From contig CM000154.2 of the NCBI GenBank assembly GCA_000004695.1, positions 4,736,001-4,800,000 of the forward strand: DNA of 64,000 nucleotides, read 5' to 3'. The first letter of the stretch is position 1, and every line of letters starts with the position of its first letter. The translations under genes and the position numbers were made by a program. The notes under the pieces are model-generated. The model was not told the DNA's origin, did no database searches, and worked only from the letters and a program-made list of their open reading frames with translations. The stretch is from Dictyostelium discoideum. Lineage: Eukaryota. This document shows, in pieces, positions 35,025 through 62,579 of the stretch.

Positions 35025-36318
35025 CTATAGGGGGTTATTATTATTATTATTTAATTTTTTAATAAAAATTTTAATTGTTAATTTATTATCAGTACTCAAC
35101 CAACCAAACTTTTTATCTTGGAATTCACCAAAGCCGACAGACCTGTGGAGGGTTCTGTTTGGTCCTTTAAATTTGATTGATTTCGACCTATCCAAATAAT
35201 TAACTATGGTAAAAATATATTTTAAATTAACCGATGGTTTTGTTTTAAATCCAATACAAGTTGGAGAAATTGAAAATGCACCTTTGGAAAAAAAAAAGTT
35301 GAAATTCTTCATTTTCAAAGTTAAATGGTTGAGAAAAAATTTTACCATTTGGTATGTTTGAAAAAATCCATTTGTTTTTGTATGTAGGAGAATAAGTGCT
35401 ATCCATTTTAGTGATAAATGAAGAAAGATTATTATTTTTTATTTGAAGTTCATCAATCTTTTTAACTAGCTCATCTTGGGTTTTATTTGATTCATATAAT
35501 GTTGATAATTTTGAAGATAGTTTTTCAATTAACAGACCTATGAAAAATTGATGATTTACATTCTCTTAATGGTTTAGTAACTCTGATCTTTCCATATAAA
35601 CTTTACAACCATATTCATAGTATTTACATGGTATTATTGAATAATTACAATCATACTCTGAATGATTTTATTTGATCTCTTTCAACCATAATTGAACAAC
35701 CTTGTGGACAGTCAATTGGAAATTTTGGGTATATATCATGATGATTCTCTAATTCCATTTGAATGATATCATCACAAGCACAATACTCACATTTAACTAA
35801 TTTGTAATCACATTTATTTTCATGTTCTTCTAATGAATTTAATCTTAAAACTATATCACATCCATCATGTGAACATTTTTCAAATTTAAATATACAATTT
35901 TCTATATGTATATCTAATTGATCTACATTTATTATTTCTCTACAACCATTCTCTTCATCTTTTACAAATATTCTTTTTTCATTTTCTTCATTTTCATATT
36001 CTTGATTGGCATCAATAAAATAATCAAAGTATGAGTAAATACAACAACATTCTTTTTTAGCAAAATTTTTTCAATTACTAAACATCTTGATAAATCTTTA
36101 AATGAATTCACTTCCGATCTACAAATCATACATTCTTGTTTTGTTTCTAATGATTTCTCCCAACATTCTCTACATGCATAATGACCAGATCTACATTGAT
36201 AAACTGATTTTTTATAAAAATATTCAAAACAAATTGGACATGAATATTTATTTTTCTTTTGTAATGATTCTTGATTTAATAAAACATTATTGATTGTAAA
36301 TTTTGAATTTATTGACAT
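35025..36318 (-). pseudogene. TRAF-like pseudogene (full-length relic, copy A of the duplicated unit). RING N-terminus intact, middle disrupted by frameshifts/stops, MATH-like C-terminus in a separate frame.
   Basis: 35962-36318 reads [83 protein letters not shown], then the frame is lost. 35025-35348 encodes a MATH-like tail. The intervening TRAF-finger region is only readable across several frame breaks. Confidence 0.55.
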
Positions 36319-36841
36319 TCTTTGTTATAAAATTATATATATATATTAAAATATATATATTAAAAAAAAAAATATAAAATAATAAAAAAAATTAAAAAAT
36401 AAATAAAATTGAAAAAAATAATAATAATAAAAAAAAAAGTGAGTGTGTTAATTTTTTACAAATAAATTTGCTATTATTTTTTTATTTAAAAAAAAAAAAA
36501 AAAAAGCTATTTTTATCACCAAAAAGAAAAAAAAAATTAAAATTTTAAGCGGTGGAAAAAAATAAAAAAAGTTATTTTTAGTTGTATCTTTTATTTCACA
36601 ATAAAAAATAATTAAAAAAAAAAACTAATAATTAATAAAATAAATAATTGGAAAAAAAAAAAAAAAAAAAAAAAAAAAAAAAAAAAAAAAATTAAAATTA
36701 AGTTCTAGTAACATTTAAATCAAATTTTTTAATAATCTAAAAATGTTTATAAAAGATAGAATGATTAAAAATTTATTTGGTATTTTAAAATTTTTTTTTT
36801 TTTTTTTTTTTTTTTCATTGTAAATGTTATTAGAATTTTAT

Positions 36842-39800
36842 TTAATGATTGTTAATAATATCATTTAAAATCATTGATTCATTAATTTCCCAATCTTGAT
36901 GATTATATGAACCAATTGAAGTTAATAATTCTTTTGTGCTATTTGACATTTTTAACAAACTATTAATTGTAAAAGTTGTTAATAATAAATTTTGATTTTT
37001 GTGAATGTGGAATGTTGAATATCTTTTTGATGATTTTCCATTTGATTTTGAAACTAATTCAATCCATTCATCGAAATCTATTTCTTTACATTTAAAATTG
37101 TTTTCCAATACCCTATAAAATGATTTCATTTCCATTGAATTACCATTAAAATTATAAATTGAGATTGGTTTTGATTTATTTTGATTCCAACTGTTTTCAT
37201 TGAATATTAAATCAATTGTTGTTTTAGCTATGGTTGTGACTGGAGTTGAGAAAATCGATTTATGAATATTTGGATAATAACCAATCTCTTTTGAAGCTTT
37301 GATTAAAAGTGATATAAAATCATTTGAATGACCTATACCTGTTATTGGATTTGAGAATATATCTATAATTAAAATAGCAATGAAAAATGGTTATTAGAAT
37401 ATTATATACTAAATTTAATCGATTGAAATGTTAACAATAATAATAATATGCTACATACCAGGTGGTCTAATAATGATTGATGGTATACCTCTTGATTCAG
37501 CTGCATTTGTTATAAGTTTCTCTGAAATAACTTTAGATTGAATATATCCAATTGGTGTAGAATTAAAACTTGGAACTGAATTTGTTTCTTCAAAATCCTC
37601 TTCATCTTTAAAAGGATGATTAATGAATACTGCAAGTGATGAAAAATGAACTATTAATTTTTGTGAGCTATTATTTGAAACTGATAATTTTATAATTTGA
37701 TTAACACTGTTAACATTTACAGTTTTACTTTCTTCATAGTTTGATTTTAAATTTATATCTGCTGCTGAATTAATAATAATATCACATTCATTTGAAAGTT
37801 TTAAATAATCTTGTTCAGTTAAACCAAATTTGTCTTTTGAGATATCACCAATAATTGGAATGATTTTAATTAATTGATCTTCATTTATTTGATTATTATT
37901 ATTGTTACTATTATCACTGTTTGAATTACTACTATTTAATTTATCATTTGATATGTTACCTGTATGATTGATTATTTTTGTTTTTCTTTTTGGAGATTCT
38001 TTATTCATATCTATTAATTGATGTTTCTTTAAATTATTAATAATTACATCGATTGGATTTGTTAGTTTTGAATTATTTCTTATTAAACAATAAATTTTTG
38101 ATATATTATTCACTTTAATTAATTCAATTAATAAATATGCACCTAAGAATCCTGTTGAACCTGTTAAGAATATTGATTGACAATTATTATTATTATTATT
38201 ATTATTATTATTATTATTATTATTATTATTATTATTATTATTATTATTATTATTATTATTATTATTTAAAATATTTTTAATTGAATATGGTCTTGAAATG
38301 ATCGATTCATTTAATTTAGTTTCATTTTTAATAAACTCATCAAGTGATTGTTGTTCTTTTTTAATGTTATCATGATGATTGCTATTATTATTATTATTAT
38401 TATTATTATTTTTATTTTTATTATGGGCAGATTTAATAATTTCAATTGATTGATTGATTTTATTATTTTGTAATTGTTGAATTGTGATAATATTATGACC
38501 TAATTGATTATCGACAAAATTCTTTAATTGTACAATTACTAAACTATCCATACCATATTGTGAGAGTTGTAAATCTTCATTGATTTTGGATTCATCAATT
38601 GATAATATTTCACTGATTTTATTTAAAATTGTTGAACGAATAATTTCATTATTATTATCATCACCAGAGAAAGATTTGATTTGATTTGATTTTTTAACAA
38701 TATTAATTTCAAAATCAAATTTTGAATGATGTTGATTTGTTAAAGTTGATGGTAAAACTTCAAAATTGAAATCTGATAAACAATAGTTTGGATATTGATG
38801 TTGATTTTGAATGAATAGATCTAATGAACTAATAACGAGTTGAGGTGAGAATAGATTTGAAAGAGTACTCTTTAACATTGTTTCAATTGCATTATTACGT
38901 GATACGAAACCAGTTGATGATATGGCACCTAAATTAATGGCTAAAGATGGTAATCCAATTGAATGTCTATACTTTGATAATGAATCGATAACATTACATG
39001 CACTAACATAACAACATTGTTTATCTGATCCAAATATTGAAACTACTGATGATGCCATTATGAATTGTTTGATATTCCATGAACGATTAATCGATTGATT
39101 GTGAAGATTAATTGCTCCAATTGTTTTAGCACCATGTGTAATATTTAAACGATTCATATCTACTTTTTGAACATCACAAATATCATTCATAAATGCAAAA
39201 TGAATGATTGAATCAATATTTGTAATATTTTCATTTAACTCTAATTGATTCAATACTTGATTGACTTTAGTTGAATCTTCAATATCGATTTGATTGAAAT
39301 GGAATTTAATAATATTATCTTTTTTAAATTTAGTTTGATTGATTAATAATTCTAATTCCCATTTTAATTTTGATTTTGAAAGTATTATAATATTTTCAAT
39401 TGAATGGTTTGAATATTTAACCAAATATTTTAATATTTCTAAAACAATACCAGTTTGACCAGTGAGTAAAATATTTTTACCAATATTTAATTTTGAAATA
39501 TCATATGAATGTTTCATGATTTGATTGTTATTATTTTGATAAATATTATAAATTCTATTGAATTCATCTTGATTATGATTAACAATGATTTTACCAATAT
39601 GTTTTCTTTGATTTATATATTCAATTGCATCTTTAAATTGATTATTTGAATATTCAATGATTGGTACGCTTGGCTCTAATTTATTTGAATTTATCATTTT
39701 AATAATTTTCTTTATATAGCTTTTGATTAATTTACCAGGGAAATCTATGACCTCTACGTTAAAGTAACCCACATTAAATTTGTAATGATTATTTGTCATA

Positions 39801-61100: not shown

Positions 61101-61284
61101 TACTATTATTTAATTGACCGAAGGGATATCTTTTACTTTTTTTTTATATATAATTGTTCGAAACTTTAAAAAATAAAATAAAAAAAAAAAAATTAAAAAA
61201 AAAAATATAAAAAAAAAATTAAAAAAATTAAAAAGTATTTTTTTTTTTTATTTTTTTATTTTTCCACCCGAAGATGTCGCTTTT

Positions 61285-61686
61285 TTGGAATTTAAAGATG
61301 TTGAATTCAATCAAAGTGATGAATTTGGTGTATTATTTAACGAAGTTACTATTGATAAAAATGATTTGAAGTACAAAGTAAATGTTGAATTTAGAGAGGC
61401 GGAGACAAGTAAAAATAAATTGCAAAGGGATATCGAAATAACCAAAAGAAAATCAACAGATGACCTAGTTGAAAAAGCAATCGAGCACTCTACCACCGAA
61501 GTTAGATCAACACATGAAGCTGCAACAACTTCCAATAATGGTGGAATCACAACTCAATCAAACAAAAACAAAACGGGTAAAAAAAGAGCTAATCAATTAC
61601 AATCTGATGCTGATTTTACCAAAAGATTTTCAAACGAAACTTCATCTGTTAGTAACAAAAGAGAAAGTAGAAGAGTCAATAATTAA
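61285..61686 (+). other. Internal ORF of the TIR element, 133 codons, no in-frame ATG (begins at TTG); unassigned
   Basis: Only stop-free stretch inside the element. Composition is less AT-biased than its surroundings. Charged, K/E/T/S-rich product …EFKDVEFNQSDEFGVLFNEVTIDKNDLKYKVNVEFREAETSKNKLQRDIEITKRK…. No recognisable domain. Confidence 0.25.
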
Positions 61687-62579
61687 AATAAAAAATTAAA
61701 AAAAAAAAATTATTTTAATTTTTTTTTTTTTTTTTTTTTTTTATTTTTAATTTTTTTTTTTATTTTTAATTTTTTTTTTTGTGAGCCGTGGACATAAATG
61801 AATAATAAAAAAATATATCAACTAAAAAAAAAAGAAATGAAAATAAATTATAAAATTAATAATAAAAATAAAAAGATAAAAATAAATAAAAGATATAAAT
61901 AAAATAATATGAAAATTTTTTTTTTTTTTTTTTTTANTATTATAATTATTATAATAAAAATAATAATAATAATAATTTTAGTACTAAAATTTTGTTTATA
62001 TTTGAGATGATTATTAATTAAATGACTTTGACTTTTTTTTTTTTTCTATGCCAAAATTACCATATTAATTTTGGCAGCTATGTACATGCTGAAATTAATA
62101 TGGCTGCTGAAATTAATACGGTAATTTTGGCAGACATAAGTCCCATGCCAAAATTAATATAGCTGCTGAAATTAATATGGTAATTTTGGCATGGGACAGT
62201 TATTTTGTGTTTGTCAATTTACAAAAAAAAAAAAAATGTTTTGGTGTGTGTTTTTTTACCCCCTTAAATATTGACCAAAATTAATAAAATTTAATTTATT
62301 TTTATTGTACACCCAAATTCCACAAATACAATTTAATATTTACCTATACATTAATAAAACTTTTATAAGCTGGCCATTTTTCAAGCGAAAACGATGATGG
62401 AGGGGTAGAAAATGATAATTTACTTAAATATTCTATTCAAAATAAAGAGGATAGAGAAGAAGAAGAGTTGAGTGTGTATTATTTTTCATTTTACATAAAT
62501 ATGTTAAAGTATTGGCCATTAGAAAAAAAAAAAGTTAAAAAATGAAAAAAGTTAAAAAAAAAAAAAGTGAAAATATATT

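Follow-up and report, generated by a model that had tools for sequence, protein, structure and literature searches.

The tandem polyketide synthase genes pks38 and pks39 of Dictyostelium discoideum: a duplicated segment with mosaic divergence between its copies

A stretch of 64,000 nucleotides from Dictyostelium discoideum (NCBI GenBank assembly GCA_000004695.1, contig CM000154.2, positions 4,736,001 to 4,800,000 of the forward strand; hereafter the window, with a base composition of 22% G+C) carries two neighboring type I polyketide synthase (PKS) genes, each accompanied by the remains of a TRAF-like gene. Both PKS genes have been annotated before, on chromosome 5: the one in unit A is pks38 and the one in unit B is pks39. 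The pair was probably made by a head-to-tail segmental duplication, that is, by the copying of one ~12-kb block, with later gene conversion in the KS-AT region, a middle portion of older ancestry, and then the insertion of a thug-S-family transposon and the slippage of repeats. It is a real but ordinary instance of gene-family expansion and not a clean, datable recent duplication. The initial annotation of this DNA had described a recent duplication of ~95% identity; the copying of a block is real, but it was not one clock-like event, the divergence between the copies ranging from 0.7% to ~7% along their length. The units and the genes within them are as follows.

35337-47265: duplication unit A, delimited by collinear BLAST blocks and by global alignment with unit B
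47266-48998: spacer between the units, AT-rich and non-coding (47250-48998, or 1,749 bp, by the BLAST block ends)
48999-62362: duplication unit B, delimited by BLAST and global alignment and including a 1,815-bp B-specific insertion
36842-46775, reverse strand: PKS gene A (pks38), 7 exons, 3133 amino acids, with the domain order KS-AT-DH-cMT-ER-KR-ACP-reductase
46775-46457, 46359-46167, 46081-45957, 45878-45420, 45341-45147, 45048-37459 and 37362-36842, reverse strand: exons of pks38
50202-60077, reverse strand: PKS gene B (pks39), 7 exons, 3108 amino acids
60077-59759, 59645-59453, 59367-59243, 59161-58703, 58624-58430, 58321-50807 and 50722-50202, reverse strand: exons of pks39

Comparison of the window with itself by BLAST gave four large and two short terminal collinear blocks, all on the same strand (A 35337-47249 versus B 48999-62351), with block identities of 91.5-97.4% (E = 0). 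If a 5-bp indel is allowed, the homology extends 11 bp further, to 47265/62362. A global alignment of the units, from which the B insertion had been removed, comprises 11,403 aligned bases, of which 494 are mismatched (95.67% identity), and contains 38 indel events. The two are tandem duplicates in the ordinary sense, being adjacent, in the same orientation and collinear, with a similarity far above chance. This agrees with the initial annotation, which placed the ends of the two units correctly to within a few tens of bases, gave the spacer as ~1.7 kb, and proposed the pairwise alignment in which the units indeed prove collinear and not far more divergent than had been estimated.

The divergence between the copies changes along this alignment, and two tracts stand out:

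A 44441-46863, B 57726-60165: homogenized tract, KS-AT region (exons 1-5 together with their introns, plus the beginning of exon 6), 0.7% divergence
A 38131-42950, B 51467-56217: divergent middle tract (end of DH, cMT, ER, KR and ACP), ~7% divergence

Measured in windows of 400 alignment columns, the first differs by 0-1.3% and the second by 3-11% (mean ~7%); the sequence at A 42960-44440 differs by 3.8%, and the 3′ exons, the intergenic sequence, the TRAF relic and the 5′ flank by 2-4%. By class, the divergence is 4.5% for the PKS exons, 3.7% for the TRAF relic, 3.9% for intergenic sequence and 3.3% for the 5′ flank. The longest run of identity between the copies is 716 bp (46146-46863), compared with a maximum of 376 bp when the positions of the mismatches were permuted 2,000 times (p<0.0005). 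The first 200 codons of the two genes are identical, and synonymous divergence (dS) is 0-0.018 in codons 1-600 and 0.08-0.21 in most of the remainder. Introns 1-5 differ at only 1.6% of positions (7/436 bases). Because these introns and the synonymous sites are nearly identical as well, constraint at the protein level cannot explain the identity of the KS-AT region.

The closest paralogs in the AX4 lineage, a cluster comprising three of the ~45 PKS genes in the genome, served as outgroups:

CM142511.1 4614082-4642421 (locus L016): paralog cluster g1 - P450 - g2 - g3, ~230 kb away on the same chromosome

In Jukes-Cantor distances, A and B are separated by 0.007 in the KS-AT region, where either copy lies 0.073-0.082 from the g paralogs. 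Over the 1.5 kb that follow KS-AT the corresponding values are 0.038 and 0.063-0.074, in the middle 0.069 and 0.072-0.084, and at the 3′ end 0.032 and 0.12. In protein windows spanning residues 1724-2753, the resemblance between A and B is no closer than that of either to the homologous proteins P0001 or P0007. Since the outgroup distance is flat where the A-B distance shifts tenfold, neither mutation rate nor constraint is the cause of the pattern. Judged by these comparisons, the copies have evidently exchanged sequence by gene conversion or recombination, gene conversion between tandem paralogs being a standard phenomenon. Given such exchange, the overall identity of 95% is not usable as a clock. 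Accelerated evolution or positive selection was also considered as the sole cause of the divergent middle, and was rejected: dS is raised there too, and dN/dS (the ratio of nonsynonymous to synonymous divergence) reaches ~1 in just one window of 200 codons, with few sites.

The overall identity of 95.7%, the perfect collinearity, and an insertion and slippage that are clearly later would all accord with a simple, clock-like recent duplication, as envisaged in the initial annotation, in which a uniform divergence of ~5% reflects point mutation, with slippage and one transposon insertion added afterwards. Such a history is nevertheless very improbable, in view of the tenfold change in A-B divergence between tracts against a flat outgroup distance, the length of the identical run relative to its permuted maximum, and the fact that the coding exons have diverged more than the neutral flanks (3.3-3.9%).

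Other genomes provide a scale for these distances. In flanking single-copy genes (TFIIB and a 1366-residue open reading frame, ORF), dS between the window and the tropical D. discoideum isolates L012 and L013 is 0.05-0.07; it is 0.08-0.10 for the cf. discoideum isolate L011 and ~0.30 for D. citrinum L014 and L015. Over the 3′ 1.9 kb of the PKS the two copies are 4.8% apart, whereas their divergence from the PKS sequences of the wild isolates at the same position is ~7% (L012) or 8.5-9% (L013).

Under the history that we favor, the copied segment would have begun ~475 bp ahead of the PKS start codon and taken in the whole seven-exon PKS and the first three quarters of the downstream TRAF-like gene. 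The block copying would date to the last time at which the flanks were identical; these are now 3.3-3.9% apart, which is below the divergence from the tropical D. discoideum isolates. Gene conversion would later have re-homogenized the ~2.4-kb KS-AT tract between the copies, and in one of the copies, probably B, the middle ~4.6 kb would be of older ancestry, having come in from some other PKS copy or allele or else survived from an earlier pair. Finally, a thug-S element with a mir-7131 hairpin would have entered the promoter region of pks39, and the coding (AAT)n tracts would have slipped in frame. We infer a recent block with an older middle because four separate segments share a divergence of ~3.5% and each departure from that value forms one contiguous tract.

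A possible, if unlikely, alternative is that the tandem pair is old. The duplication would then be of the age of the ~7% middle, and almost of that of the g1-g3 split; both ends, including the flanks outside the PKS, would have been overwritten later by unequal crossing-over or long conversion tracts, and KS-AT once more in recent times. Consistent with this, the A-B distance in the middle (0.069) approaches that of either copy from g1-g3, with no sampled donor nearer to either, and dS in the middle exceeds the value for AX4 against the wild isolates of D. discoideum. Furthermore, in the last ~440 bp visible in L013, which lie in the divergent middle, A is equally near the wild-isolate PKS and B (25 vs 23 sites). 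On the other hand, the four segments (TRAF relic with intergenic sequence, 3′ exons, the 1.5 kb after KS-AT, and 5′ flank) all lie at 3.2-3.9%, which is most simply explained by a single event, and an old pair requires at least two simultaneous homogenizations that spared just the middle.

Several observations weigh against a recent block with an older middle. Intron 6 (A 37363-37458 versus B 50723-50806) differs at 11/82 bases (13%), far more than the adjoining exons and flanks and a misfit with an age of ~3.5% for the 3′ end; this excess could be alignment noise in AT-rich sequence, the effect of a tiny sample, or a trace of older ancestry. A donor of the middle tract was not found among g1-g3, all of which are about equally far from A and B; an old pair with homogenized ends would match these distances equally well. 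There is no clean end-to-start junction, the units being separated by ~1.75 kb of unrelated spacer, and the distal junction is hidden in the present assembly by a gap, beyond which lie retroelement remains:

62580-62679: assembly gap of 100 N, 218 bp past the end of unit B
62827-63768, reverse strand: decayed LTR (long terminal repeat)-retrotransposon integrase fragments, as frameshifted ORFs with an Integrase_H2C2 match, past the gap

Lastly, an independent chromosome-scale long-read assembly (GCA_054883475.1; CM142511.1, locus L001), probably of the lab strain AX2-214 (PMC12745789), matches the window at 99.7-99.85% identity over 21040-42103, so that unit A is covered as far as 42103 while unit B and the distal junction lie outside the match.

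The gap just past unit B, a single N inside the insertion sequence, and the restriction of the second-assembly match to unit A might also suggest an assembly artefact, in which a single PKS locus appears two times over, or versions from two haplotypes or strains were placed in tandem. We regard this as extremely unlikely. The copies differ by 494 substitutions, 38 indels and a transposon with its target-site duplication; every coding indel is in frame; D. discoideum is haploid (PMC12745789); a published variant call maps specifically to pks39 (PMC10755179); and unit A is reproduced in the independent long-read assembly. The gene called in that assembly at the position of copy A has a product of 3133 amino acids, the same length as our model, and has no Pfam record attached to it.

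The spacer sequence does not recur in the 218 bp between the end of unit B and the gap. Two candidate explanations were discarded. A tRNA-targeted retroelement as the source of the sequence past unit B was rejected, there being no tRNA genes in the window. Non-allelic homologous recombination between flanking TRAF genes was rejected as unsupported: in place of a full-length hybrid, the TRAF copy in the middle breaks off where it meets spacer sequence unrelated to it.

The TRAF-like genes of the region were mapped by tblastn with the intact gene T1 and with the 509-residue TRAF gene of locus L012:

32327-33935, reverse strand: T1, intact TRAF-like gene with RING, zf-TRAF and MATH domains, at the head of the TRAF array beside TFIIB
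34388-34905, reverse strand: T2, TRAF-like fragment with one stop and an internal deletion
35055-36318, reverse strand: T3, TRAF-like pseudogene of unit A, of full-length extent, with three frameshifts and one in-frame stop
48999-49759, reverse strand: T4, TRAF-like relic of unit B, with in-frame stops and a 222-bp internal deletion, cut at about residue 403/509

Only T1 retains an intact ORF with all three domains, T3 and T4 being relics of the family and not working members. T3 continues for ~280 bp below the unit A boundary (35337), whereas T4 stops at the duplication breakpoint and lacks its C-terminus, an ORF of 142 residues encoding the RING domain being all that remains. Since the proximal breakpoint falls inside the TRAF-like gene, T4 was incomplete from birth. 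Its internal deletion corresponds to A 35512-35733, its in-frame stops are absent from T3, and the two share no disabling lesion; they would appear to have decayed independently. A decayed TRAF-like gene in each unit had been recognized in the initial annotation, and is evident here. The 550-bp deletion attributed there to the copy in unit B is instead the 222-bp deletion plus the truncation at the breakpoint. Its proposal that PKS and TRAF relic were duplicated as one block holds insofar as TRAF-like sequence was copied with the PKS, but what was copied was not a complete relic, as the breakpoint cuts the gene and the lesions differ.

The splice models of the PKS genes were built with the homolog P0001 as guide, using frame-keeping GT..AG introns of 78-113 bp, and both spliced models are free of internal stops. 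In each, Pfam finds KS, AT, DH (weak), C-methyltransferase, ER, KR, ACP (ACP_SdgA_C) and a terminal NAD_binding_4 domain, in that order. The spliced N-terminus matches Pfam ketoacyl-synt and Ketoacyl-synt_C over their full length, and this match validates the small exons. The Cys-His-His triad of KS is present in both proteins (DTACSS at 178, HGTGT at 320 and NIGHT at 360), as is the GHSLG serine motif of AT (residue 655 in A, 651 in B; Acyl_transf_1 E = 3e-44). KR, ADH_N/ADH_zinc_N_2 and Methyltransf_12 score above their cut-offs in both, and the NADPH motifs of ER and KR and the S-adenosylmethionine motif of the methyltransferase are there. The DH domain is weaker (PKS_DH_N 24-26 bits against a cut-off of 27), with the same 10-residue motif, HxxxDxxxxP, in both. 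The serine motif of ACP reads GMDSL in A and GTDSL in B (ACP_SdgA_C E = 1e-32), and the release domain (NAD_binding_4 E = 1e-39) has the motifs TGSTGFLG and GYIQSK (Y..SK) in both proteins. A seven-exon type I PKS of ~3100 residues with intact catalytic motifs in each unit, as first annotated, is thus borne out by the gene models, the motifs and Pfam.

The two proteins are 92.5% identical. By the Nei-Gojobori method dS, a measure proposed with the initial annotation, is 0.093 overall, though uneven along the gene; dN is 0.0365 and dN/dS 0.39, with dN below dS (Fisher p = 2e-18). Of the coding indels, 15/17 have a length divisible by three, and the remaining two (20 and 1 bp) together make one 21-bp event within an (AAT)n tract; among noncoding indels the proportion is just 3/21 (coding vs noncoding p = 8.6e-6). 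These figures indicate that both reading frames have been kept under selection since the copies diverged, and they lend support, at the level of sequence, to the earlier view that both copies look functional. As far as domains and motifs can tell, both genes look like working iterative, highly reducing type I PKSs.

Repeat tracts differ in length between the copies, as had also been noted in the initial annotation. A coding (ATT)n tract, poly-Asn on the gene strand, is (ATT)41 at 42113-42236 in pks38 and (ATT)61 at 55308-55490 in pks39; an (ATT)28 tract at 38183-38266 occurs in pks38 only, with none in pks39; and an (AATA)n microsatellite has 16 repeats in A versus 20 in B. The coding tract differences between the genes amount to whole codons. 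Other (ATT)n tracts occur within the window at 5666-5887 and 22806-22955.

In their KS-AT-DH-cMT-ER-KR-ACP order, an ACP that matches ACP_SdgA_C, and a C-terminal NAD_binding_4 domain for reductive release, pks38 and pks39 resemble fungal highly reducing PKSs with a terminal reductase. They differ from these in the DH motif (HxxxDxxxxP and not HxxxGxxxxP), in a Pfam DH score below the cut-off, and in being AT-rich genes with poly-Asn tracts; the likeness is one of domain architecture.

The insertion that distinguishes unit B, and the hairpin within it, are located as follows:

60383-62197: thug-S-family terminal inverted repeat (TIR) element, 1,815 bp, situated 306 bp ahead of the pks39 ATG
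60397-60485, scoring on both strands: mir-7131 precursor hairpin in the left TIR, 306-400 bp upstream of the pks39 start

The element ends in inverted repeats of ~240 bp (60383-60623 versus 61988-62197) built of 58-bp palindromes. A target-site duplication, GTTATTT, is found at both ends, and unit A has a single uninterrupted GTTATTT (empty site at about 47098-47104). Because of this empty site in A and the target-site duplication in B, the insertion is younger than the duplication. This sustains both the 1.8-kb transposon insertion and the sequence of events (duplication first, then insertion and slippage) put forward in the initial annotation. The hairpin scores 93.8 bits against Rfam RF03716 (mir-7131; gathering score 74) and folds at -63.1 kcal/mol (z = -13.95), and two small RNAs that derive from the DNA transposon thug-S (PMC4894637), miRNA_can_D3-5p and -3p, are matched exactly within the left repeat. 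Assignment to the thug-S/mir-7131 family was made from these two exactly shared small RNAs and the above-threshold score. The 133-residue ORF of the insert has no Pfam matches and no transposase domain.

Sequences of the same type occur elsewhere in and around the locus. A ~190-bp element in the spacer (47606-47803) consists solely of thug-S-type palindromic repeat units, which match the termini of the 1.8-kb element at 97-98% identity, and looks like a miniature derivative of a thug-S-type element. In L013 a thug-S-related element (17313-19049), 78-87% identical in pieces to the copy in the window, separates the last TRAF gene from the 3′ end of the PKS; the family has struck the locus more than once.

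The TFIIB ORF of the window (31056-32033) is identical to D. discoideum AX4 XP_635486.1; among the TRAF ORF and several others looked up by exact match, just TFIIB and one anonymous ORF had an entry. A published variant table gives pks39 as DDB_G0290943 on chromosome 5 (NC_007091.3:4,793,752; PMC10755179). The names pks38 and pks39 are used here on the strength of position, length and that table. The models reported here are the same genes as those annotated and differ from them in nothing. Their lengths of 3133 and 3108 amino acids equal the UniProt lengths of pks38 and pks39, and pks38 is DDB_G0290937, on chromosome 5. When the large exon of pks38 was searched against proteins, the best matches were just 84-86% identical and came from a different cluster; the pks38 and pks39 proteins themselves were absent from the results, and orthologs more than 90% identical may likewise be missing there.

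Zucko et al. (2007) reportedly described how the type I PKS family of dictyostelids has expanded in a lineage-specific manner. Dictyostelid PKSs form a large family of iterative, modular proteins of 2,000-3,500 amino acids with optional methylation, reduction and release domains; most members have no ortholog in other species, a sign that the expansions were species-specific (Sucgang et al. 2011; PMC3188802). A multi-genome study of 2025 places PKSs among the largest orthogroups (PMC12745789). The genes, the lineage-specific expansion of PKSs and the transposon family are thus already known. The pair had been presented in the initial annotation as a concrete example of how PKS arrays grow; with annotated genes and a published lineage-specific expansion (PMC10755179, PMC3188802) it is not a new one. 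It constitutes one step of the expansion treated at the level of the family tree in PMC3188802, whereas breakpoint anatomy, mosaic divergence and between-strain variation are described here. A global PKS profiling paper of 2025 does not mention pks38 and pks39, and our literature search found no paper on the mosaic structure of the pair.

What the pair offers is the well-resolved anatomy of one expansion step: the places of its breakpoints, a relic that was incomplete from the outset, a transposon insertion that has been dated, and two genes that are both under selection. It also counsels caution, in that the identity of tandem paralogs reflects sequence exchange as much as age, and dates derived from whole-gene identity would mislead. 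The results may be of use in choosing PKS pairs for product comparison, or in studying the variation of the locus between strains; they open no new question. A more ambitious proposal, which we consider rather doubtful, is that the locus is a birth-and-death hotspot of the D. discoideum complex. Domain-scale recombination would there keep the chain-building KS-AT end identical and swap or retain divergent tailoring domains, cMT-ER-KR-ACP (80-90% protein identity), the products would differ from the same starter chemistry, and the thug-S insertion would uncouple the regulation of the two genes.

The g1-g3 cluster consists of genes for 3101 (g1), 2623 (g2, DDB_G0290703) and 3075 (g3) amino acids. 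Its members belong to the same PKS subfamily (88-89% protein identity to A and B), are also in tandem, and are homogenized, their mutual divergence in the middle region being 2.5-5%, which suggests concerted evolution in this cluster too. It differs from the pks38/pks39 pair in the intervening cytochrome P450 and the lack of TRAF-like relics, and in that g2 is without the terminal reductase domain.

The corresponding loci of the other genomes are variously arranged. L013 has three full-length TRAF genes, the thug-S-like element, and then a PKS (19072-20981) with two frame changes in exon 6 within ~150 bp; either the gene is a pseudogene or the changes are indel errors of the long reads. In L012 three TRAF genes are followed, at the position of pks38, by no more than a PKS relic of ~1.8 kb that contains a stop codon (17225-18996). 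No PKS was found within 10 kb of TFIIB in the cf. discoideum or D. citrinum loci, and a protein search with the ACP-reductase end for wild-isolate PKS fragments returned only fragments of other clusters. The TRAF array beside TFIIB varies likewise, with one intact gene and relics in the window, three full-length genes in the tropical isolates, and other layouts in cf. discoideum and D. citrinum. In L011 a gene for 783 amino acids (14065-16951; DDE_Tnp_4 and Phage_integrase) stands in the TRAF array, where AX4 has the TRAF relics and pks38.

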